Shown here in pieces: positions 5,350 through 36,200 of a DNA stretch of 64,000 bases. Location of the stretch: positions 530,230 through 594,229 of the forward strand of contig OZ246403.1 in assembly GCA_965230925.1 (NCBI GenBank), given 5' to 3'. The notes under the pieces are model-generated. The model was not told the origin of the DNA and did no database searches. It saw nothing but the letters and a program-made list of their open reading frames with translations. Each line of letters starts with the position of its first letter. Position 1 is the first letter of the stretch. Both the position numbers and the translations under genes were made by a program. This stretch comes from an uncultured Candidatus Saccharibacteria bacterium (lineage in GTDB: Bacteria > Patescibacteriota > Minisyncoccia > Phycocordibacterales > JACOZG01).

Positions 5350-6216
5350 GTGGACATCCTTCCTCAACTTATACTCAATAGTTTGATTGCGGGGGCGATC
5401 TATAGTTTGGTCGCGCTCGGATTCAACCTCATCTATAGTACGGTCAAATTTTTCGACCTCGGTTACGGCGCGCTCACGGCGGTGGGCGGGTATGCTACGT
5501 TCTTTCTCTTCAAGATGAACGGCTTTAATCTTTATCTCGCGGTCATCGCGGGGATGATTGTCGCTGGCTTCATCAGCTTCCTCGCCGATCGCTTGGTGTA
5601 TCGGCAGTTGCGCGCCCGCAAGGCTTCCGGCATGGTCTTCCTCGTCGCGGCGCTTGGGATTTTCACTTTGCTCCAAGCGCTCATTGCGATTTTCTTCACC
5701 AGCCAATTCCAGACGCTCTTCCCGGCGAGCGCGAGTTCTCAGGTCTACGACATTGGTGGTGCCGTGATTACCCACGTGCAACTGGTGATTCTCATCACCG
5801 GTCTCGTGCTCATGACCTTGCTCGGAATTCTCTTAAAGAAAACTTTGTTTGGTAAAGCGATTAAAGCGGTGGCTGATGATGAAGAGGTGGCGAAGATTGT
5901 GGGCATTAATACCAATACGATTATCAGCGCCGTGTTCTTCATCGGCGGCGCGATTGGTGGCCTCGCGGGGATTCTCGTTGGCTTCGATACCGGGATTGAG
6001 CCGACCATGGGCCTCTCGCTTCTCCTCAAGGGTGTGATTGCCTCGATTATCGGCGGGATCGGCAATATTTACGGCGGTGTCCTCGGGGCTTTCCTCCTCG
6101 GTGTGGTCGAGAACTTCGGTATCTGGAAAATTTCTGGCGAGTGGAAAGATGCGATCGCCTTCGCCCTGCTCATCGTGTTTTTGCTTTTTAGACCTAGTGG
6201 TTTATTGAGACGATGA
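5350..6216 (+). CDS. livH: branched-chain amino acid ABC transporter permease (LivH-like)
   Basis: GTG start directly after the SBP3 stop. The product is polytopic and ends ...LLFRPSGLL, typical of LivH/LivM permeases. Confidence 0.8.
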   Translation: MDILPQLILNSLIAGAIYSLVALGFNLIYSTVKFFDLGYGALTAVGGYATFFLFKMNGFNLYLAVIAGMIVAGFISFLADRLVYRQLRARKASGMVFLVAALGIFTLLQALIAIFFTSQFQTLFPASASSQVYDIGGAVITHVQLVILITGLVLMTLLGILLKKTLFGKAIKAVADDEEVAKIVGINTNTIISAVFFIGGAIGGLAGILVGFDTGIEPTMGLSLLLKGVIASIIGGIGNIYGGVLGAFLLGVVENFGIWKISGEWKDAIAFALLIVFLLFRPSGLLRR

Positions 6217-6261
6217 GCAGGGCGAGAAATCCGAAGCCCGAATATCGAAACTCGAAACAAT

Positions 6262-6703: not shown

Positions 6704-7570
6704 ATGGAATACTTAATTCACCTCGCAATTCTTGTTGGCATCTACTCGATTCTCGGGATTAGTCTCAACTTGGTGGTTGGATTCACTGGCTTATTGAGCA
6801 TCACCCAAGCGGCCTTCTATGGTCTCGGTGCCTACGCCACGGCGATCTTGCTCACGAGCTTCGGGCTTAACTTCTTTCTTGCCACCATCATCGGCATTGC
6901 GCTCACCGCAGTCATAAGCCTTTTGGTTGGTCTTGTTTTGAGTCGCTTCCGCGGCGATTACTATGCGCTCGGTTCCTTCGGTTTCAACATTATTCTCTAC
7001 AGCATCTTTCTCAATTGGCAGTCGCTGACCCGCGGCCCGCTTGGCATCCCAGGCATCGGCCGGCCGAGTTTGTTTGGTTTCTCTTTTTCTTCCAATCTGT
7101 CTTTTCTCATTTTAACTTTCATCTTTGCTCTTTTGACTTTCCTTTTCTCCCGGTGGCTCACCACGTCTTCCTTCGGCCGCGTCCTCAAAGCCATTCGCGA
7201 AGATGAACCGGCGCTTCAAGTCTTTGGCTATCGTACCATTTACTTCAAGCTCGCGATTTTTGTAATTTCTTCCGGCGTGGCGGCGCTTGCGGGATCACTC
7301 TTCGCTTCCTACATTACCTTCATCGACCCGTCGAGCTTCGTTCTCTTCGAATCCATTTTTATCCTCGCCATTATAATCTTGGGTGGCCTCGCCAACCTCA
7401 AGGGCTCCGTCTTGGGCGCACTTTTTCTCATCCTCTTGCCTGAGGCCTTGCGCTTCGTCGGCTTCCCCTCCGACATCGCCGCCCAGATGCGCCAAGTGGT
7501 GTACGGCTTGATTCTCGTTCTCCTCATGCTCTACCGCCCGCAGGGATTGGTTGGAGAATATAAATTGTGA
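6704..7570 (+). CDS. livM: branched-chain amino acid ABC transporter permease (LivM-like)
   Basis: Polytopic membrane protein ending ...LYRPQGLVGEY. Followed by SBP genes and then the LivG-like ATPase. Confidence 0.8.
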   Translation: MEYLIHLAILVGIYSILGISLNLVVGFTGLLSITQAAFYGLGAYATAILLTSFGLNFFLATIIGIALTAVISLLVGLVLSRFRGDYYALGSFGFNIILYSIFLNWQSLTRGPLGIPGIGRPSLFGFSFSSNLSFLILTFIFALLTFLFSRWLTTSSFGRVLKAIREDEPALQVFGYRTIYFKLAIFVISSGVAALAGSLFASYITFIDPSSFVLFESIFILAIIILGGLANLKGSVLGALFLILLPEALRFVGFPSDIAAQMRQVVYGLILVLLMLYRPQGLVGEYKL

Positions 7571-7582
7571 TAAGGTAAAAAT

Positions 7583-8707
7583 ATGAAGAAACTCGTTTGG
7601 CTTATCGTTATCGTAGTAGTAATTGGTCTCATTGCTTGGGCGAGTACCAAATCCGAACCATCGATTACGGGCGAGACAATTAAGATCGGAGCCGTGTTGC
7701 CGATGACCGGAGCTGGGGCGGCGTATGGCGAGGATCAGAAGAGGGCAATTTCTTTGGCTGTAGAGGAGATCAATGCTGCTGACGGAATTGGTGGCCGGTT
7801 ACTTGAGGTAATTTACGAAGATGACCAAACTGATCCGAAGTTCTCGGTGTCAGCGGCACAAAAGTTGATTAATGTTGATGGGGTCAAAGTAATCATTGGT
7901 GGTGTCTGGGATCATTTGGCAAATGCTATTGCCCCAGTTATTGATCAAGAGAAAATTGTTTTGATCAGTCCATCAGTAAATGCGGACACGGTTGGTATCT
8001 CAAGCCCGTACTTTTTCATGACCTATCCGCCAGTGGCGAGTACTCGTCCGGCATTCGAAAAATTTTTAGCAAAATTTCCAAATGCCAAGGTGGTGACTAT
8101 GACTTGGAACAATAACTGGGGTCTCGGTAATGCGAAAGTTTTTAAAGAAGCGGTGGCGAAAACGGGTGGGCAGGTGGTGAAGGAAATCGTTTTGACGAAG
8201 CCAGATGGGAATGATATCCAACGCGAACTTACCTTACTCGCTCCACTGAATCCGGACATTATCTTCACGGTAATGAATTTCAGCGACACGGCTGTGTTTG
8301 CCCGAAAGAAGAGCGAATTGGGAATCAAGGCCACAGCCCTCAATCACTATAATCTAGCAACGGCATATCTCAACGGCCAAATTCCTAATGAATTTATGGA
8401 AGGGTTGTATGTATTTAAAAATTCTCCCTCGAGCACTGAGTTTGTCGAGAAATATAAGAACCGCTATCAGATGGAACTCCAAATTCCTGATGCCGACTCG
8501 GCCTACGACGCTGTTCAAGTAATTAAACTTGCGCTCGAGAATAATGAGGGTGATTACAGCGCCGAAACCTTAATGTCAGGAATTCATGCGATTAAGAATT
8601 ATCAAGGCGCTTCAGGTTTGATCGACTTCAGCCAAACCAATTACACCGAGAACAAAAAACCAGTGCTTGAATTATTCCAAGGTGGTAAATTTGTGGAAAT
8701 AAAATGA
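7583..8707 (+). CDS. ABC transporter substrate-binding protein, LivJ/LivK family, paralog 4
   Basis: MKKLVWLIVIVVVIGLIAW anchor and IKIGAVLPMTGAGAAYGE motif. Confidence 0.85.
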   Translation: MKKLVWLIVIVVVIGLIAWASTKSEPSITGETIKIGAVLPMTGAGAAYGEDQKRAISLAVEEINAADGIGGRLLEVIYEDDQTDPKFSVSAAQKLINVDGVKVIIGGVWDHLANAIAPVIDQEKIVLISPSVNADTVGISSPYFFMTYPPVASTRPAFEKFLAKFPNAKVVTMTWNNNWGLGNAKVFKEAVAKTGGQVVKEIVLTKPDGNDIQRELTLLAPLNPDIIFTVMNFSDTAVFARKKSELGIKATALNHYNLATAYLNGQIPNEFMEGLYVFKNSPSSTEFVEKYKNRYQMELQIPDADSAYDAVQVIKLALENNEGDYSAETLMSGIHAIKNYQGASGLIDFSQTNYTENKKPVLELFQGGKFVEIK

Positions 8708-16860: not shown

Positions 16861-17664
16861 ATGAATAAATATTTTATTAGTGGCGCATTAGCGCTCACGT
16901 TAGTGTTGACCCCCGCGTTTGGCATCGCAGCTAAAGTTCACGCTGCGCAGACAGAGAAAAACAGTCGACCAAGTTTATGGTCAAGAATTTTGTCGCGGTT
17001 TAATGATCGACCGGCGCCAAAGGTGGTGAAGCCAATCGAGCCTGTAATTGTTCCGCCAGAGACGGTTCTTCCTATTCCCGAGCCGCAAGTTAATGTTCTC
17101 GCCATGGTTTCTAGTAACCCTCCTTCTGGAGCGGTAATTTCTGGTCAGCCCTGGAGCACAGATGGCGCTCTTTATGGTGGTTCTAAGATTCAAATTATTG
17201 AGGTAACGATGTCGAATACGGCGACCGCGATGGTGGCAGAGGACTTCGAAGTTACTTCACCTAACCCAGACACGCCGAGGGTGGTGAGCTTGATGCCAAG
17301 CGAGAAGAACAATACCGTAAAATTGGTGCTCCAATACCCACTTCCTCTTGGTGTTTGGACCACGATTACTCACAAGGCTAGCGGCAGTAAGATTGTGCTT
17401 GGGCGCTTGCCTGGCGATGTTAATCAAGACGGTGCTTTTACCCCCCACGATATCTTGAAGATGGTAGATTATCAGAACGGTGTGGCAGATTTGCCTCTCT
17501 ATGCCGTTGACATGGATAATAGTGAGGCCTTTACTCCTGCTGACTTCTTGCGGCTCATTGATTTAATCAATGGTGCTGACAAGCTTGATCCGGTGGGAGA
17601 AGCCCGATGGTTTGGCCGCTCACTTGGTCCGAACCCACTTACGAGCCAGCCAACAGCGAACTAA
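16861..17664 (+). CDS. secreted protein with C-terminal conserved module plus type-I dockerin-like repeats
   Basis: Signal peptide MNKYFISGALALTLVLTPAFGIAAKVHA. C-terminal GDVNQDGAFTPHDILKMVDY...DMDNSEAFTPADFLRLIDLINGAD resembles the dockerin double Ca-binding repeat. Confidence 0.6.
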   Translation: MNKYFISGALALTLVLTPAFGIAAKVHAAQTEKNSRPSLWSRILSRFNDRPAPKVVKPIEPVIVPPETVLPIPEPQVNVLAMVSSNPPSGAVISGQPWSTDGALYGGSKIQIIEVTMSNTATAMVAEDFEVTSPNPDTPRVVSLMPSEKNNTVKLVLQYPLPLGVWTTITHKASGSKIVLGRLPGDVNQDGAFTPHDILKMVDYQNGVADLPLYAVDMDNSEAFTPADFLRLIDLINGADKLDPVGEARWFGRSLGPNPLTSQPTAN

Positions 17665-17687
17665 TAAATTTATCCACTTTCCCAAAA

Positions 17688-17715
17688 AGACCTCTCAACG
17701 GAGAGGTCTTTTTGT
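17688..17715 (+). terminator. rho-independent terminator (agacctctc-aacg-gagaggtct + T-run)
   Basis: Perfect 9-bp stem, 4-nt loop, followed by ttttt. Confidence 0.6.
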
Positions 17716-17732
17716 GTTATGATGTCGAGCGT

Positions 17733-19646
17733 ATGAAAAAATTTACCCTTTTATCTTTATTTTTAGCCTTAATTTTTATTAGTCCAATTGCGGCCCGAGC
17801 TCAAGATACGAGCAAGCTTGATTACTCTAGCCTGCTTAAAATCTTGGAACAGCTTCGAAGTCAGAAGGCTGTTCCTTCCGTGACCGTTACGCCGGTTGAC
17901 GGTGTTTTTAAACCCGTTGATGTGCCTGTCGCCTTCAAGATTGGTGAGAGTGGCCCTGAGGTGAGAGCGATCCAAGAAAAACTTCGTGCCTCCGGCGACT
18001 TCACTTATCCAGAAATTACTGGTTATTACGGCAAAGTCACCGATGATGCGGTGAAGAAGTATGAGGCGCGAACCAAAGAGAAAATTCTTAAGCCGCAACC
18101 AATTGCAAGACCGTTCCCAATGTGGCCAGTTTCTGGAGCGGGTCTCGGTAATTTCTCGGTGAAGGAAATAAACGCCGCGATTGCTGAAGCTTATAGTGGA
18201 AATGATAAAACCGGAGTTTGGAAGGAAATTCCTGGTAGTAAAGAGTACAGCCAATTTCAGTCCGGCCCAATTAATTGCAATGGCGCCAATACTTGCATTG
18301 ATGGTCTTTACAACTTTGCCCAGATTTCTCGGGTGGCAGTAAATTCTTCTGGTAATGTGGCGGTGGTGGCGGTAAATACTGGATATGTGTATCCGGAGGG
18401 GCAACTTATTAAGAAGGGAGATACTCAGGTGCCAGCAGTTTTTCCTACTTTCGCTTATGGTGGACCTCGTCCGACGCTGTACCCAATAGAAAAGAAGGTT
18501 GATGGTCGCGTGGTACTCGGTATGCCGTATCGATTGTATGAATATCCTACCGAGACGGAGTTTTCTCGCTCCAATGTTAGCGACCTCAACTTCAAAGGGG
18601 AAAACCTTTTGTTTGTTCTGGTAACAGGGCAGAAGAATTATCATGACACTCGTGGTTTGGTAGACGCGAGTGACACCTATCCCTTCACGGTTCAGCTCGA
18701 TCGCGCTACCGATATGTATCAATTGGTGCCTGGTCAGAAAACAGAATACCCAACACCAATAACAAGTGGTATCCAAGTGATCTCACCCAATGGTGGCGAG
18801 GGGCTTGCCTTGGGAACAACTTATCGAGTGGCTTGGAATACAAAATATAATTTTCCCGCAGACATTTTCCTTGTTGACCAAACGGCTCTTGCGCCAATTC
18901 AAATTGGTGATGAATACACTGGTTATTTTGACTGGGTAGTTGGAAAAAGAAACAGAAATTCTGATCGAGAAATAAAGCCAGGAAGTTATTTTATTAAAGT
19001 TTGTGTATTAGCTGATCCTTCAGACGAGAAAAGCGTAGTTTGTGACCAAAGTGATTCTTACTTCAAAATTTATTCTGACACTCAGACAGGTGAACCAAAG
19101 CCCGGGGTTTTTGGAATCATGAGCAGTGTCCCGAGTTCGGGCGCGGTTGATGCGCGGATGCCATCGAATCCTGATGGTTCAACGGTCAGTGGTTGGCAAA
19201 CATTTGAATTGATCTTCAATGAAGGCAATGCGGCGAAGATGAGATCACTTAAGCCGAGCGACTTTCTGGTGAAAAACACCGGCGCCGGGTCGCTTAAAGT
19301 CTCTTCTGTTGAAGTGCTTGGTGAGAACAATATCCGGGTAAAGCTAGATAAACCAATTCCGGTTGGTCAGTGGACGCTCATTGTTCATGAAGATTCTGGT
19401 ACCTACGCCAATTTTGGCTTCTTGCCGGCCGACAGTAATGGCGACGGTGTAGTTAATTCCACTGACCTTTTGCTTCTCATTGATGTAAACAATCAGGCCA
19501 AGAAAGCGGAAGTGTGGCAGGTAGATATTGATCGCAGTGGGGTGGTAAATATTCTCGATCAACTAATGTGGATTAACCTGATCAATGGTGCCGACGCCTT
19601 CGACATTTGGCTCAATAAATCATTGCCGCCACTTTACGGAAACTAA
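17733..19646 (+). CDS. secreted surface protein: PG_binding_1-like domain + Kre9/KNH-like Ig-like domain + conserved module + type-I dockerin-like repeats
   Basis: Start taken at MKKFTLLSLFLALIFISPIAARA; the upstream part of the 17607 ORF overlaps the previous gene. FKIGESGPEVRAIQEKLRASGDFTYPEITGYYG resembles the peptidoglycan-binding motif. ISPNGGE...W matches the Ig-like motif. C-terminal DSNGDGVVNSTDLLLLID and DIDRSGVVNILDQLMWINLINGADA form the dockerin pair. Confidence 0.65.
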   Translation: MKKFTLLSLFLALIFISPIAARAQDTSKLDYSSLLKILEQLRSQKAVPSVTVTPVDGVFKPVDVPVAFKIGESGPEVRAIQEKLRASGDFTYPEITGYYGKVTDDAVKKYEARTKEKILKPQPIARPFPMWPVSGAGLGNFSVKEINAAIAEAYSGNDKTGVWKEIPGSKEYSQFQSGPINCNGANTCIDGLYNFAQISRVAVNSSGNVAVVAVNTGYVYPEGQLIKKGDTQVPAVFPTFAYGGPRPTLYPIEKKVDGRVVLGMPYRLYEYPTETEFSRSNVSDLNFKGENLLFVLVTGQKNYHDTRGLVDASDTYPFTVQLDRATDMYQLVPGQKTEYPTPITSGIQVISPNGGEGLALGTTYRVAWNTKYNFPADIFLVDQTALAPIQIGDEYTGYFDWVVGKRNRNSDREIKPGSYFIKVCVLADPSDEKSVVCDQSDSYFKIYSDTQTGEPKPGVFGIMSSVPSSGAVDARMPSNPDGSTVSGWQTFELIFNEGNAAKMRSLKPSDFLVKNTGAGSLKVSSVEVLGENNIRVKLDKPIPVGQWTLIVHEDSGTYANFGFLPADSNGDGVVNSTDLLLLIDVNNQAKKAEVWQVDIDRSGVVNILDQLMWINLINGADAFDIWLNKSLPPLYGN

Positions 19647-19649
19647 ACT

Positions 19650-20171
19650 TTGAATGTGAGTGTAAGAGAACATGATGCTCTACGTCACCAGCTTTTAGAA
19701 GCTCATGACGCCTGGTCGAAAGCGATTTTTCGCCATCTTTCCTTCCGAGTAAGAGATCGTGAGCGGGTTCTTGAGCTGACGCAAGAGGTCTTTCTTCGTG
19801 CTTGGCAAATGCTCTCTCGAGGAGAAAAGGTGGAGAATATGCGAGCCCTTCTCTATCGTATTGCCCGCAATCTGACCATTGATGAGTACCGCAAGCCGAA
19901 GACGGAATCGCTTGATGCCCTAACTGAAGCGACTGATTTTGAGCCGGTAGATCCGCGGGAGGAAAACTTGGTTGATCAGCTTGATGGGGCGCGGATGCGC
20001 GAACTGGTGCTCAAGCTTGAACCGCTTTACCGGGAGCCTTTGGTCTATCGTTATATTGATGATCTGGCGGTGAAGGAGATCGCGAGTCTCCTCGGAGAGA
20101 CAGAAAACGTGATCTCTGTTCGGCTTCATCGCGGTTTAGCCAAGCTCCGCGAGCTTATTTTAAAATCATGA
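19650..20171 (+). CDS. ECF (sigma-70 family group 4) RNA polymerase sigma factor
   Basis: Region 2 (LTQEVFLRAWQ..., RNLTIDEYRK) and a region 4 HTH (LVYRYIDDLAVKEIASLLGETENVISVRLHRGLAKLRE). 173 aa. TTG/GTG start 4 nt after the previous stop. Confidence 0.8.
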   Translation: MNVSVREHDALRHQLLEAHDAWSKAIFRHLSFRVRDRERVLELTQEVFLRAWQMLSRGEKVENMRALLYRIARNLTIDEYRKPKTESLDALTEATDFEPVDPREENLVDQLDGARMRELVLKLEPLYREPLVYRYIDDLAVKEIASLLGETENVISVRLHRGLAKLRELILKS

Positions 20172-20240
20172 ATCCCGTTACAAATTCAGCCAACCTAACT
20201 ATGAGTAAGATTATTAAGTGTGTTAAATTTGTAACGGGAT
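20172..20240 (+). promoter_or_regulatory. perfect 15-bp inverted repeat (atcccgttacaaatt / aatttgtaacgggat) spanning sigma stop to anti-sigma start
   Basis: Arms at 20172-20186 and 20226-20240 with a 39-nt loop. The right arm contains the ATG (20239) of the downstream gene. Seen directly in sequence. Confidence 0.4.
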
Positions 20241-20718
20241 GAATCACTTAGAACGCGCCCTGGGGCGAGCAAAAAACGAAATGAATTTGACCGAGGCCGA
20301 GGAGGCGAGTCTTAAGCAGGCTTTGGAGTGGAAAATGGGTGAGGAGAAACTGGTAAGAATCCCCGAAGACTATCGTCATCATGCTTGGTGGCGGGGTTTA
20401 GCCCTAGTTTTGCCACTCATTGTCATTTTTATCGCGGCGCGTCAAGTAACGGCACCAAGGCCGGACGTGTTGCCGCAAGTGTCGGATAGTGCTACCGAAA
20501 TGGTTGTACCCATGACGGTTCCCGTTGCTCCAGTTGCACCTCCTCCGGCACCGGTAATGCTGAAGCGAATGCCGGTGGTGGAACCGCCGGTGGCGCCAGT
20601 AGAGCCTCAGTTTCCTACGATGACGCCGTCAGCGGGTGGACTGATGTCTGTTCCAGAAGATGAGACAGAGTTGCTACGAGCCACCACGTCCACAAGTACG
20701 ATTGAGATTGAAGAATAA
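20239..20718 (+). CDS. putative anti-sigma factor / membrane-anchored regulator (single TM, Pro/Val-rich extracytoplasmic tail)
   Basis: Immediately downstream of the ECF sigma. One TM helix (WWRGLALVLPLIVIFIAA) and a low-complexity PVAPVAPPPAPV tail. No recognisable zinc-finger anti-sigma N-domain, so assignment is by context only. Confidence 0.4.
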   Translation: MNHLERALGRAKNEMNLTEAEEASLKQALEWKMGEEKLVRIPEDYRHHAWWRGLALVLPLIVIFIAARQVTAPRPDVLPQVSDSATEMVVPMTVPVAPVAPPPAPVMLKRMPVVEPPVAPVEPQFPTMTPSAGGLMSVPEDETELLRATTSTSTIEIEE

Positions 20719-20728
20719 TAAATTTATA

Positions 20729-23059
20729 ATGAATAATATGAAAAAAATAAACATCCTCTTGCTTGGTCTTGCTTTGGTGGGGGGCTTGGTAATGCCCACC
20801 ACGACGCGAGCCCAAATTACTAGTCCTTGGGAAGAAACGGCTTATTTGCCGCCGTGGTCTCCTGTTCAAACCGAAGTGCGGTTTAAGATTGGTGAGAGTG
20901 GTCCCGAGGTGCGAGCGATCCAAGAGAAGCTTCGTGCTTCTGGCGATTTTACCTATCCTGAAATCACTGGCTATTACGGTCAACTGACTGATGCCGCGGT
21001 GAAGAAGTATGAATTGAGAACTGGGCAGAAAATTATTAAACCAATGCCGAGACCGCTTCCAATGCCACCAGTTAGCAGTGATGATATCACGGTGCTTTCA
21101 CCAAATGGCGGGGAAAAATTAAATATAGGAGACAAGTTTAATATTAGTTGGTCAATTAAAGATGGTAAGATAGATTTTCCGTCGATAAGTATTCATTTGC
21201 GAGAGCACCTTACCTGTACACCAGAAAACCATCCCAACGACCCATTCTTTTGCTCTTTGTGGGATCCCGCCCCACCGAAGTCCTATGCAGTAATAGTTGG
21301 TGCTCCTAATTCGCTAAAGAACGGTGGAAGCTATGCTTGGTTAGTTGGTAGAGCGCAAAGAATTGATGACGATATTGTTTCTTACTTAAACATCCCTTCT
21401 GGAAAATATTTCCTAGAAATATGTTATTCGCAGATAATTCCAATTGCTGGAGGATTAACAAACAACACTTCCCGAGCTCAGGTTTGTGATAAGAGTGATT
21501 CCTATTTCACTATTTCTTCTAACGACATCATTCCTTATCCTCGACCATTCGGCAATCAACCACCGGTAATTCACGGTGTCTCTGGTCCGACGGTGTTACG
21601 AGTGGGCGAGGCGGGTGAGTGGTCAGTGAAGGCGAGTGATCCAGAGAACGGTAGCTTGAAGTATGCTATTGATTGGGGTGATCGAAGGGCTTCAGCTGGT
21701 GCGGAGGGCTTGCCTTCAGTGTTTGGTCTTACGTTTGATACGACTCAGAAAAGCACCTTTACTCACAGCTATGGTTCCGCCGGTACTTATACGATTACTT
21801 TTGCGGTAAGTGACGATTGGGGTAATAGCGCCAAGTCCAGCATGACGGTGCGAGTAGGTAATAGTGTTGTTGGTAATAATAAAGTCCAAGTAATTTCACC
21901 TAACGGTGGTGAATCGTTGCTTGCTTACTCCAACGCCACTATTACTTGGCAGTCTCCTAGTGCTAAGGTTGATTTATATTTGCAGCCAGATTGGTCTTGT
22001 CCTGCTGGTTATGCTTGTCCGGCCGTAATGCCACAGCCTTACCTTCTCGATAAGAATATTTCTGGAAATGTGTATTACTGGATTGTGGCGACTGATGTAA
22101 ACAATAAAAGAATTCCGAGCGGAAGTTATAAAATAGAAATTTGTCCGGCTGGGTCTGACTCGGGTTGTGATTCTAGTGACAATTCTTTCAGAATTTATTC
22201 TAATAGCAACTTGCCGGCAGAGGCTGAAGGTGAGCTGAGTGTGGACGTTGTAACTTCAAAGAGCGAGAAAACTCTTACCAGTGCGCGACTCTCGGTGCAC
22301 ACAAGTAGCGGGCGCTTTGTGGCCACGGGCAATACAAGCGATGGCCCGGAAATCTTTAGCGACTTAGCTTATGGTTCTTATGTGGTCTACGCTCAGGCCT
22401 CTGGTTATGCGCCAGCGAGAAAGGCTTTCACCCTCTCGGCCAAAAAGCCTTCAGCCACGGTGGTGATTAAACTTAAGACGGCGAAAACGGTAGATATGCC
22501 CAAGGTGGTAACTTCAGGTATTGTCTCGAGTAATCCGCCAAATGGTGCTATCGATGCGCGGATGCCCTCGAATGTGAACGGCTCCGGCTTCTGGCAAGGT
22601 TGGAATCAATTTGTACTTAAAATTGCTGGAGTAAATACGGCCAGCCTCACTCCAACTGACTTTGCCATGAAGACAACCGGCGGAGTGTCGACGAAGATCA
22701 ATGACGTTTCTGTTGCAACCGGCGATTCAACTCTTGGTGTGATTCTTACTACCCAGTATGGCGTGCCAATTCCGGAAGGCGAGCGGACGGTTATCAGACA
22801 TGAGGCGAGTGGTACTGAGATTTGTCTCGGGTATCTCCCCGGCGACGTGGACGGTAGCGCCAAGGTGGACGGTGCCGACTTGCTTGCCCTCATTGATGCG
22901 ATCAACGGCGTGAAGACCTTGCCAGATTATTCTACCGATCTCAACCGCGACGGTGTGACGAACAATGAAGATCAGCTTACTTGGATTGATCTCACTAACG
23001 GCGCCGACGCCTACAGCGCTTGGTTTGGCGAGACCTTGCCCAAGTGTCCGAAGATCTAA
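20729..23059 (+). CDS. large secreted surface protein: PG_binding_1-like + Kre9/KNH Ig-like x2 + PKD-like + conserved module + type-I dockerin-like repeats
   Basis: Start taken at MNNMKKINILLLGLALVGG. The FKIGESGPEVRAIQEKLRASGDFTYPEITGYYG stretch is identical to the 17733 protein. A PKD-like domain is present (YAIDWGD...GTYTITFAVSDDWGN). C-terminal GDVDGSAKVDGADLLALIDAINGV...DLNRDGVTNNEDQLTWIDLTNGADA forms the dockerin pair. Confidence 0.65.
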   Translation: MNNMKKINILLLGLALVGGLVMPTTTRAQITSPWEETAYLPPWSPVQTEVRFKIGESGPEVRAIQEKLRASGDFTYPEITGYYGQLTDAAVKKYELRTGQKIIKPMPRPLPMPPVSSDDITVLSPNGGEKLNIGDKFNISWSIKDGKIDFPSISIHLREHLTCTPENHPNDPFFCSLWDPAPPKSYAVIVGAPNSLKNGGSYAWLVGRAQRIDDDIVSYLNIPSGKYFLEICYSQIIPIAGGLTNNTSRAQVCDKSDSYFTISSNDIIPYPRPFGNQPPVIHGVSGPTVLRVGEAGEWSVKASDPENGSLKYAIDWGDRRASAGAEGLPSVFGLTFDTTQKSTFTHSYGSAGTYTITFAVSDDWGNSAKSSMTVRVGNSVVGNNKVQVISPNGGESLLAYSNATITWQSPSAKVDLYLQPDWSCPAGYACPAVMPQPYLLDKNISGNVYYWIVATDVNNKRIPSGSYKIEICPAGSDSGCDSSDNSFRIYSNSNLPAEAEGELSVDVVTSKSEKTLTSARLSVHTSSGRFVATGNTSDGPEIFSDLAYGSYVVYAQASGYAPARKAFTLSAKKPSATVVIKLKTAKTVDMPKVVTSGIVSSNPPNGAIDARMPSNVNGSGFWQGWNQFVLKIAGVNTASLTPTDFAMKTTGGVSTKINDVSVATGDSTLGVILTTQYGVPIPEGERTVIRHEASGTEICLGYLPGDVDGSAKVDGADLLALIDAINGVKTLPDYSTDLNRDGVTNNEDQLTWIDLTNGADAYSAWFGETLPKCPKI

Positions 23060-33291: not shown

Positions 33292-36200
33292 ATGAAAATT
33301 CATCGCCGATTTTTTGTTGCTCTTTTACTAATTACTTTGTTAATTCCCACCGTCTCCCGGGCGCAGACCTCACTTGATCTTCTTCGGAGCTTTTTGAATA
33401 TTCTTCAGATGCAACTTTCTGGAGCCGGGGGCGGGATGAATGCTGCGCCACGACCACCCATCGAGCCACCCGGTTGGTTTTTGGATGAATATGATGCGAA
33501 TGTTCAGTTAGAGAATCATACTAGCTTATCACCCACACCCAACCAAGATCCTATTGCCCATGCTGGTGCGGATCAAACCCTTGCCCCGGGTGTGACCCAA
33601 GTTACCCTCAATGGTTCTTTGTCGAGTGACTCCGATGGTCAGATTGTTTCTTATGTTTGGCGCCGCGGCAGCTCGGTGGTTGGTCTTTCTGTAAACCCGA
33701 CGATTTCTTCTCTCGCTGTTGGTACCCACACCATTACGCTCACAGTTATTGACGATGATGGCGCCCGCGATACCGACAGTGTAAACATTACGATTACTGC
33801 CGCTCCTGATCCTTGTCTCAACAATCAAGCACCGACCGCTGTGCTTCAAGGACCGGCTACCGGCGAAATCAATCAAAACCTATTGTTCTCCGGGTTTCTC
33901 TCGACTGATCCTGAAACTGAACTTGGTTCACTACAATATCGCTTTACCTTTGGCGACGGTGTTGTGTCTGAATGGCAAAGTGCCACCGCAGATATTTTCC
34001 ATCATTACACTGCTGCTGGTATTTACACTGTTTCTTTGGAAGTTCGTGACTCTTGTGGGGCCATCGATGTTTCTGAACCACGACAAGTCGATATTGCTCC
34101 GAACCAAGCTCCTGTTGCCGATGCTGGCCCCGACCAGGTTGCCGATGCCGGGTCGCTAGTTTCTTTCTACGGCAACAATTCCTATGACCCTGACCTTTGG
34201 GGTGCGATTACCGAATACCACTGGGATTTTGGCGATGGTGCCAGCATGAATGGTCAAAGCGCTTTTCACGTCTACAGTACTCCCGCAATTTACACCGCTA
34301 CTCTCACCGTGACTGATGATGGTGGTGCTATTGATAATGACACTGCCCTGATCACAGTAAGCGTTTCTAATCCCTGCGCTAATAATAATCCACCCACGGC
34401 AAGTGCTGGTCTTGACCAAACGATCAATGAGGATACTTCTGTCTTTTTCGCCGGTTCTGGTACCGACACTGATGGTACCATCACTAGCTATGTTTGGGAC
34501 TTCGGTGATGGTGATACTGGAAACGGAGCAACTCCCACCCACGTTTACACTACTCCTGGATCATATTTTGCTACCCTCACGGTGACCGACAATTGTGGCG
34601 CCACCAGCTCTGATCAAGCTACTGTGACCGTTACAAGTTCAGCCCCTGCTCAAGTCCCACCTCGTGTTAATGCTGGTGTTGACCAAAGTAATCTCTCTTT
34701 CCCTACCACCGTTTCTTTGACCGGGTCAGTTGTCGGTTTCCCTGCCGGTTACAGTGTTGTGTGGACTAAAGTAGCTGGTCCCGGTACGGTTAATTTCTCA
34801 AATGGCAGCGGTCTTCAAACAAACGCCACCTTCTCAGCCGCCGGTCTCTACACCCTTAAGCTTACTGCAACCTCAGGTAGCTTAACCAGATCTGATACCG
34901 TTCAAATTGTTTTCAATCAAACAGTTTCAGTTAACGCTGGTCCTGACCGGATTCTCAATCTTTCGACCAGTAATCACCAAGGGTCCATTACCCTTGATGC
35001 TTCGGTAACAGCGAGTGACCCCGCTCCACTCTCATATTCTTGGTCTCAGGTTTCTGGACCATCTCAGCTCTCTATTACTGATAATCAAATTGCCGACATT
35101 GCCATTTCTTCTACTAAGGCCGGAACATATGTCTTGCGCTTGTTGGTGTCTGGTCCTGGTGTTATTCCGGTCCAGGACACCATGACACTCTTTGTTCGTG
35201 ACTTAGAGGCCGGAGAAACTAAAACTGTTGTTTGGCCAGCAACTGCCACTCTCTCAGGTGTTGCCACCAATTTCCCGACTGATACCACCTATCAATGGTC
35301 ACAGCAATCCGGTCCGGCAAATGGTGCCGTGTTCTCTCCCCCCAACAGCTTAAGCACCACAGTGAGTTTTCCTTCTCAACCCTCTGCGAGCGGAGACATT
35401 TACCAGTTACGTCTCACTGCTACTCCGCCAGGTGAGTCACCAATCATCGACACCGTTCAGGTTAATGTTAATCCAACCGGTAGTTTGGGTGTTAATGCCG
35501 GACCAGATCAATTAAACCTGGTATTTACTTCGCCCTCAGCTACGATCAACCTTACTGGTACAGCGGTTAATGTCCCTTCTGGTACCGCCTACAAATGGAC
35601 GAGAACCTCAGGTCCTGCTGCAGGAGTTGTGTTTTCACCTAGCGATACAGTTCTTAGTCCCACAGTGACCTTAACCCAAGCTGGGAATTACACCTTCCAA
35701 CTAAAAGCCACGCCCCCAGCTGGAGTTCAGATGATTGATTCAGTGAATATTACTTTCAATCTTAACCCTACCAATGTTCTCGCTGAAGCATCGCCTCATT
35801 ACTTAACCTGGCCTAATGATTCAACGAGCTTAAACACTCACTTCTCTGATTCTAATCCTGGGGTGGTAAATGCCGCCTGGACGCAATATTCTGGGCCAAC
35901 GGGTGGAAACACCACGTTTGCTAATGAAAATGCTTTCGATACCACGGCGACCTTCAATCAAACCGGGCAATTCGGTCTTAGGGTTGTGCTTAATGATGGG
36001 TTAGCTTTTTCACCACAAGACGAAATTTCAGTTAATGTCTATCCCGCTTGTGATGCAAACAATCAACCACCAGTAGCTTCAGGTAGTTATGATCAATGGG
36101 CGCAAGTTAATCACCCGGTACCTTTGTCTGGGTCTGCACCCATTGCCTCCAGTGACTCCGACGGTCTCATTGCTTCACATTACTGGGATTTTGGAGACGG

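Follow-up and report, generated by a model that had tools for sequence, protein, structure and literature searches.

A probable miniature inverted-repeat transposable element between an ECF-type sigma factor gene and a putative anti-sigma gene of a Candidatus Saccharibacteria genome

The DNA considered here, hereafter the window, is a stretch of 64,000 nucleotides from an uncultured Candidatus Saccharibacteria bacterium (GenBank assembly GCA_965230925.1, contig OZ246403.1, positions 530,230 to 594,229 of the forward strand). In it, a sigma factor gene of the extracytoplasmic function (ECF) type is followed by the gene of a small membrane protein, and the junction of the two carries a perfect inverted repeat. 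A first-pass annotation, made from the letters alone, had read this repeat either as an RNA hairpin that sequesters the start of the second gene or as a palindromic operator. The present analysis points to a different origin. The repeat very probably represents the terminal inverted repeats of a 67-bp, non-autonomous miniature inverted-repeat transposable element (MITE), inserted into the TGAA of an ancestral ATGA overlap between the two genes. The features of the junction, in window coordinates, are as follows.

19650..20171, plus strand: ECF-type sigma factor gene (Sigma70_r2, Sigma70_r4_2, TIGR02937), with its stop codon TGA at 20169-20171.
20168..20170, plus strand: ghost start, the original anti-sigma ATG upstream of the insertion; it aligns with the orthologue ATG and overlaps the sigma stop (ATGA).
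20168..20242, plus strand: 24-codon mini-open reading frame, translated as MNPVTNSANLTMSKIIKCVKFVTG and then a stop, with an ATGA overlap at each end; its function is putative.
20169..20172, no strand: left target-site duplication TGAA, which includes the sigma stop; 4 bp by the comparison at locus L019.
20173..20239, no strand: MITE-like element of 67 bp, TCCCGTTACAAATT, a 39-nt core and AATTTGTAACGGGA; absent from L002-L004, its arms shared with 17 other sites.
20173..20186, no strand: left terminal inverted repeat, 14 nt; the 15-nt arm described at first adds the last A of the duplicated TGAA.
20187..20225, no strand: variable, AT-rich (67%) core, the loop of the hairpin, which differs between copies.
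20226..20239, no strand: right terminal inverted repeat, 14 nt, ending in A 20239, with which the anti-sigma ATG now begins.
20239..20718, plus strand: gene of a single-pass membrane protein of 159 aa, putative anti-sigma factor, aligning from M1 with L002:3500-3979 at 58% identity.
20240..20243, no strand: right target-site duplication TGAA, source of the TG in the anti-sigma ATG and of the TGA that ends the mini-open reading frame.

The upstream gene has the make-up of an ECF sigma factor. Its product contains sigma-70 regions 2 and 4 only (Pfam Sigma70_r2 and Sigma70_r4_2) and matches the superfamily model, NCBIfam TIGR02937 (sigma70-ECF), with 67.5 bits against a cutoff of 42.9. The public gene call begins at GTG 19656 and gives 171 aa. 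In a protein search, it is 99% identical to P0001, which is the same gene; P0002 and P0003 come next at 66%, and all others stand at 55% or below. The downstream protein has one transmembrane helix and a proline-rich C-terminus, and no Pfam, NCBIfam or PDB sequence match was obtained for it. Its position, its topology and its conserved pairing with the sigma gene make it a putative anti-sigma factor. The ATG at 20239-20241 is the earliest possible start of its open reading frame (ORF). Moreover, the 159-aa proteins of the window and its relatives align from residue 1, and this ATG is therefore the conserved start.

Direct reading of the sequence confirmed every coordinate of the perfect 15-bp repeat that had been described from the sigma stop to the anti-sigma ATG. 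The left arm, ATCCCGTTACAAATT, lies at 20172-20186; its exact reverse complement, AATTTGTAACGGGAT, lies at 20226-20240, and 39 nt (20187-20225) separate the two. A repeat search extended the pair, imperfectly, to arms of 36 nt with 75% complementarity. It is the strongest close-range inverted repeat of the window, and one of just three perfect inverted repeats of at least 14 nt whose arms lie within 150 nt of each other. By our own calculation, chance would yield about 0.006 perfect 15-bp repeats of this kind, with loops of up to 100 nt, in 64 kb. The hairpin that had been suspected at this site is indeed predicted to be stable. The RNA fold is estimated at -23.3 kcal/mol (z = -3.9 to -4.4, with none of 200 shuffled sequences equally stable) and the DNA fold at -13.3 kcal/mol (z = -4.3). 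The same junction, base for base, was found in an independent assembly (Logan SRR12816581, L001), and the repeat is thus not an assembly artefact.

Three further features went unmentioned in the first-pass annotation. A direct repeat, ATGAATC, brackets the inverted repeat at 20168-20174 and 20239-20245. An ATG at 20168 overlaps the sigma stop as ATGA. The same ATG opens a frame of 24 codons.

Comparison with orthologous loci revealed what the junction looks like when the insert is missing. The loci L002-L004 of P0003 have the same gene order, namely PG_binding proteins, sigma factor, 159-aa protein and PKD/dockerin protein. Their sigma factor is 66% and their downstream protein 58% identical to those of the window. 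They have no spacer, and the first 14 nt of the 159-aa gene overlap the end of the sigma gene. In a MAFFT alignment of the DNA, a single clean gap of about 71 nt appears in L002 and L004, and 71 nt is the sum of the 67-bp element and a 4-bp duplication. Removal of these 71 nt turns the window junction into AAAATCATGAATCACTTAG, the counterpart of which in L002 is GCAACATGGAAACGCTTAA. In relatives that are more remote, a DUF5667 gene comes after the sigma gene; the two are either separated by +1 or +9 nt or overlap by 29 or 8 nt. As the genes of the relatives are so tightly spaced or overlapping, tight coupling is the norm and the spacer of 67 nt the exception. For this pair of genes, such spacing is unusual: a 67-nt gap stands against overlaps, or gaps of a few nucleotides, in the relatives.

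The insertion can be read base by base. The reconstructed target, ...AAA TCA TGA ATC ACT TAG..., is an ATGA overlap of sigma stop and anti-sigma start, and the predicted empty junction is AAAATCATGAATCACTTAGAACG. The left TGAA keeps the stop codon of the sigma gene, while the anti-sigma ATG is rebuilt from the terminal A of the element (20239) and the TG of the right TGAA. The TGA at 20240-20242 overlaps this rebuilt ATG, and a second ATGA is formed. Since the two ATGA motifs stand 71 nt apart, the second TGA necessarily falls in the frame of the ghost ATG. No stop codon interrupts the core of the element, hence the ORF of 24 codons, which spans both arms.

Further copies were found at other loci. 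Species-representative (GTDB) genomes, 185,579 in number, were scanned with the pattern CCGTTACAAATT-N(25-55)-AATTTGTAACGG, in which both 12-nt arms had to be exact. Seven sites were obtained in six loci, labelled Saccharibacteria (two genomes), Patescibacteria, Omnitrophica and Planctomycetia (three sites in one genome). An exact-arm scan of JGI metagenomes added 10 loci, giving a total of 17 further sites in 16 loci; about 0.1 chance sites are expected, by our own arithmetic, in the 596 Gb. Viral contigs gave no match. The conservation of the arms among these copies follows from the search, which required exact arms. The pairing, on the other hand, reaches 2 nt past the searched 12-mer in 14 and 15 of the 16 non-redundant copies, which gives ends of 14 nt (YCCCGTTACAAATT). 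Cores vary in both length (about 5-56 nt) and sequence, and the elements measure 37-88 bp; the shortest, of 37 bp, are diverged or minimal copies in L012. The termini are T...A in copies of the candidate phyla radiation (CPR) type and C...G in the others. Several copies can occur in one source: three lie on two contigs of the one Planctomycetia genome, and three lie within 600 bp of L012.

The flanks of the copies carry the mark of transposition. Among the 16 non-redundant copies, 68 of the 96 compared positions of the flanking direct repeats are identical, whereas permuted flanks gave 35 +/- 6, and none of 5000 permutations reached 68. A 6-bp duplication was considered, but it was replaced by one of 4 bp on account of the per-position counts, in which each of the four positions is identical in 12-14 of the 16 copies, and of an empty site in L019. 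There, one of three copies of an unrelated repetitive extragenic palindromic (REP) sequence of the GTAG type is interrupted by exactly 88 nt, namely an 84-bp element and CGAG. This comparison of filled and empty sites fixes the length of the duplication at 4 bp. The outer bases of the target are complementary (YNNR), and TGAA, on either strand, occurs in 4 of the 16 copies.

MITEs are described as shorter than 500 bp, with terminal repeats of 4-30 bp, flanking direct repeats, a high AT content and a stable transcript structure (PMC10969869). The element in the window has 67 bp, no transposase gene, perfect 14-nt terminal repeats and a flanking target duplication for which an empty site is available; the 24-codon frame that arose with the insertion is its sole ORF. 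Among searchable papers, the end sequence turned up in two unrelated ones only (on Candida auris and on plant root development), and no relevant paper linking MITEs with CPR bacteria was found. MITEs are known as a class; this family is apparently undescribed.

The sites at which the copies have been retained form a pattern of their own. Of the 16 exact-arm copies, five fall precisely on start codons, and Pfam confirmed the genes and their starts: those on the anti-sigma gene of the window, an ECF sigma gene (L005), a secreted protein gene (L008), rplX (L011, between rplN and rplX) and pth (L014, before pth and after the L25 gene). In the copies that end in C...G, the rebuilt start is GTG, and L011 retains an ATG ghost start upstream of that GTG. 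The copy of L005 (6935-7002, duplication TGTA) is from a Saccharibacteria genome, and that it, too, concerns an ECF-type sigma gene, whose start codon it occupies, is a coincidence; that sigma gene is itself followed by a small membrane protein gene with a 4-nt overlap. In L011, a Shine-Dalgarno-like motif (GAGAGGAG) stands just inside the right arm, upstream of rplX. Two copies are compound and have an extra internal arm (L011 1452-1531, TTTTGTAATGGGG; L014 495-567, GGGGTAACGG), which suggests nested or partly duplicated elements.

In the Planctomycetia genome, copies lie in frame within three type IV pilin-like genes, at the G/FT prepilin cleavage motif; the pilin copies are at L009 2444-2522, L010 3305-3362 and 3866-3944, and L018 1315-1393. 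They lengthen the leader by 22 or 29 codons (PLQIN...KRKFVTG) and regenerate the Gly codon, and the N_methyl motif of Pfam is shifted to residues 34-59. Other copies abut the 5' end of a tRNA-Pro(CGG) gene (L015 934-983, L017 1433-1485 and L012 7561-7593). In these, the terminal CGGGG supplies the first bases of the tRNA, and the displaced 5' fragment is left upstream. In L012, three copies, of which two are diverged or minimal, are crowded within 600 bp (6989-7593); they stand on either side of a small gene for a GIY-YIG nuclease (7170-7481), just upstream of a tRNA. A link with this nuclease was considered and judged coincidental, as the other loci have no such gene close to the element.

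A preference for TGAA/YNNR targets, together with the survival of harmless insertions only, could account for this pattern. A bolder reading, which we hold to be possible but doubtful, sees in these copies a cross-phylum family of translation-compatible MITEs, suited to gene-dense genomes, whose cores are kept free of stop codons and which let ribosomes from the ghost start be relayed through the hairpin to the true start, so that they would act as mobile coupling modules. According to it, purine-ended termini and the TGAA/YNNR target would together rebuild what the insertion displaces. The rebuilt parts would be the ATG or GTG starts in the window, L005, L008, L011, L014 and L012, the prepilin Gly codon in L009 and L010, and the first five bases of tRNA-Pro in L015 and L017.

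What the insertion does to the expression of the pair can be proposed from the arrangement of the codons. In the mRNA, a hairpin of about -23 kcal/mol would bury the anti-sigma AUG. Ribosomes ending at the sigma UGA could re-initiate at the ghost AUG, as they would have done before the insertion, translate the mini-ORF and unwind the hairpin. After stopping at the second AUGA, they would start anew on the anti-sigma gene. In this manner, coupling would survive as a two-step relay, probably with lower efficiency. The accessibility of the start codon should matter here since Shine-Dalgarno sites are few; a Shine-Dalgarno-like motif precedes just 8 of the 41 large ORFs of the window. The first-pass annotation had expected either of its readings to uncouple sigma and anti-sigma expression, which is not established, as the ATGA at both ends of the 24-codon ORF could relay ribosomes. 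The ghost-start ORF stays open through the AT-rich core in four of the five start-codon copies (window, L005, L008 and L011), and its end lies, in these four, anywhere from 12 nt short of the true start to 4 nt beyond it; that of L014 stops after 7 codons. Shuffling of the loops gave P = 0.005 for at least four open frames in five, in a post hoc comparison with n = 5. The insertion may also, or alternatively, reduce anti-sigma translation or expose the stem to cleavage by RNase III, as in the Correia elements. It would seem, then, to be a tolerated accident with which some tuning of expression is possible, and not a purpose-built regulator.

A number of points weigh against an insertion with such a relay. 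The window holds a single copy of the element. The sole type of orthologue without the insert is fairly distant (66% identity), and a precise loss there is not formally separable from a gain here. Within the fetched loci, no transposase or autonomous element lies between such ends, and mobilisation in trans is assumed. The copies were found by an exact-arm search, and metagenome-assembled genomes may carry imperfect taxonomic labels. The relay, for its part, was conceived post hoc from five copies, and an open frame of 24 codons has by itself a chance of about 25%.

Of the other explanations, a regulatory RNA fares best, though it is improbable. It holds that the hairpin evolved at this locus as a cis-acting device that sequesters the anti-sigma start and sets the expression of the two genes independently. 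In the predicted stem, the A and U of the anti-sigma AUG are paired, as are the 13 nt before it; the stability of the stem (-23.3 kcal/mol, z about -4) and the scarcity of Shine-Dalgarno sites, which should make initiation sensitive to structure at the start codon, would suit such a role. A MITE, too, can be co-opted after its insertion. However, the closest orthologues are without the hairpin, the same arms with flanking duplications recur in unrelated contexts and other phyla, and there is neither an Rfam match nor a set of loci that share the hairpin. A scan of 19000-21500 with Rfam 15 at permissive E-values gave no relevant family at the junction; the sole overlapping match, to a plant microRNA precursor model (18 bits, where the gathering threshold is 101.7; E = 3.8), is a generic match to a hairpin. 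No rho-independent terminator was found in 20172-20245, where the stem is AT-rich and is followed by GAAUCAC. No forward promoter was found inside the element either; the promoter scan gave only a weak promoter-like site (9/12) ending at 20166 and a 9/12 site on the minus strand. Thus, of the sequestration first proposed, the cover of the AUG by the predicted stem stands, but a device evolved for this locus does not, given the orthologues without the repeat and the dispersed copies. Homologous loci that lack the repeat, and a repeat that is a copy of a dispersed element, are the very findings that the first-pass annotation had named as speaking against its proposal.

It is still less probable that the palindrome is of the REP/REPIN type, moved by a Y1 HUH transposase of the REP-associated tyrosine transposase (RAYT) kind and not a DDE-dependent MITE. 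In favour of this, the element is a hairpin-forming palindromic unit, short and dispersed, and in L019 a Y1_Tnp gene is 43 nt away from one copy (53-132). Y1 transposition, that of IS200/IS605 and RAYT elements, makes no target duplications, whereas the copies of this element have duplications of 4 bp. Their single arms are not self-palindromic and have no GTAG-type head. No Y1_Tnp gene lies beside the element at the other 15 loci (by Pfam on the adjacent ORFs of L005, L007-L014, L016 and L020, and by ORF listing for the remaining loci). In L019 (34-776), the Y1_Tnp (RAYT-like) gene is flanked by three GTAG-type REPs (CCGTAGTGGTCGAGCTTGCTCGAC...CTCTGCCACTAC), which form a separate REP/RAYT system. 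These REPs belong to that gene and differ from the element, which has inserted into one of the three.

A genuine gene for a 24-aa protein between sigma and anti-sigma, with the inverted repeat incidental to it, is very unlikely. The frame is open, it overlaps its neighbours as ATGA at both ends, and similar peptides starting with MNPVTN are encoded at other copies. Yet the terminal residues on both sides are simply the translated terminal repeats, the middle of the peptide is not conserved among copies, the ORF is absent from the orthologue, and that of L014 breaks off after its few codons.

Least credible of all is a palindromic operator for a dimeric regulator. The dyad symmetry is perfect over 15 bp, but the half-sites stand 39 bp apart from edge to edge, which is far for a dimer. 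The arm spacing elsewhere varies (about 9-56 nt) and so misfits a fixed protein footprint, and the flanking target duplications point to transposition. Of other copies of the palindrome in this genome, which the first-pass annotation would have taken as the sign of a binding site, none was found in the 64-kb window. There is neither a second full copy nor a half-site above chance, with 3 matches at up to three mismatches where 2.3 are expected. An arm with one mismatch at 34628 is coding sequence without a partner arm. Two further readings were rejected outright: an integron attC site (core consensus RYYYAAC ... GTTRRRY), since by inspection the arms do not fit and attC sites come without target duplications, and an invertible promoter, as at no locus does the core occur in either orientation between identical flanks. 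The copies of L009 and L010 have the same orientation relative to their genes.

Several known systems resemble the inserted element in part. Like it, the Correia elements of Neisseria are short, rich in AT and without coding function, and they have terminal inverted repeats and a target-site duplication. They are co-transcribed with their neighbours and form a long mRNA hairpin able to alter expression, which for the window element is only predicted. The present family is much smaller (37-88 bp) and has copies across several phyla; its duplication is 4 bp, YNNR and often TGAA, whereas that of the Correia elements is TA. It offers no sign of a promoter, an IHF site or RNase III cleavage. In the Rickettsia palindromic elements, the likeness lies in the relation to translation: the pilin copies of the Planctomycetia genome add 22 or 29 in-frame codons, and the start-codon copies keep an open frame. 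Unlike the present family, in which only the translated ends are conserved, those elements measure about 150 bp, encode a conserved peptide and occur in Rickettsia only, and the window element lies between genes, not inside one. It has been reported that the Rickettsia elements are palindromic and selfish and survive in coding sequence by in-frame, translatable insertion, and that cleavage of Correia elements by RNase III at their terminal repeats alters expression (PMC10969869).

With REP/REPIN sequences and their RAYTs, the family has in common short dispersed palindromic units in gene-dense bacterial genomes. It differs in that it duplicates its target, its arms are not self-palindromic and it shows no RAYT linkage. 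The parent insertion sequence may perhaps be sought near IS1380, a bacterial relative of piggyBac, among the families with 4- to 5-bp duplications and 5'-CC ends. A 4-bp duplication would fit, and the ends (Y)CCC...GGG(R) resemble the TTAA followed by CCC... of piggyBac; no transposase gene, however, lies between such ends in any fetched locus. Lastly, termination-reinitiation at ATGA, as in ECF sigma/anti-sigma operons, is matched by the ancestral ATGA junction, the 14-nt overlap of the orthologue and the ATGA at both new junctions. The difference is that two successive re-initiations by way of a 24-codon ORF would be needed here.

The surroundings of the pair offer some further observations. 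Paralogous secreted proteins flank it (16861-19646 and 20729-23059) and have in common a near-identical PG_binding_1 segment (FKIGESGPEVRAIQEKLRASGDFTYPEITGYYG) and C-terminal dockerin-like domains. They are possibly the regulon of this sigma factor, and the same arrangement is found in the 66%-identical relative L002. A near-consensus promoter, TTGAGA-17-TATAAT (11/12), lies in 20702-20738; the end of its -10 box is 7 nt upstream of ATG 20738, the start of the PKD/dockerin gene. In the window, a TANNWT hexamer ends 6-7 nt upstream of 7 of 38 starts, which, together with the rare Shine-Dalgarno motifs, suggests that leaderless mRNAs may be frequent in this CPR genome. Overlaps of the ATGA type or of 1 nt between genes are found elsewhere in the window as well.

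Two further perfect inverted repeats of the window were noted. The first (6161-6225) has arms of 16 nt, TCGCCCTGCTCATCGT and ACGATGAGCAGGGCGA, and a loop of 33 nt. Its left arm lies in the C-terminal coding part of the ORF 5350-6216, and its right arm lies over the stop TGA 6214-6216, again within an ATGA; it has no obvious flanking direct repeat and no T run after it. The second (17683-17714, CAAAAAGACCTCTC ... GAGAGGTCTTTTTG) is a perfect 14-nt palindrome with a 4-nt loop, flanked on each side by A- and T-runs in the manner of a bidirectional terminator. It stands downstream of the gene 16861-17664 but inside ORF 17607-19646 as listed mechanically, which therefore probably has its true start further downstream, at the signal peptide MKKFTLLSLF...

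For annotation, it follows that the hairpin at the junction is not to be recorded as a riboregulator or an operator, but as the scar of an insertion that keeps both genes intact. Insertions of this kind leave ghost starts, mini-ORFs, changes of ATG to GTG starts and longer leader peptides behind, all of which affect gene calls. The family to which it belongs is one of very small MITEs (37-88 bp) whose 14-nt ends are conserved, and it occurs in assemblies of Patescibacteria/CPR, Omnitrophica and Planctomycetia. The sites at which its copies survive, namely start codons, pilin leaders and the 5' ends of tRNA-Pro genes, show how selfish DNA can persist where there is almost no intergenic space. 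If the relay holds true, the locus would be a natural test of how coupling survives a stable hairpin placed in an ATGA overlap; and if the doubtful reading of the family as translation-compatible modules were also correct, the module in the window would set the ratio of anti-sigma to sigma factor.

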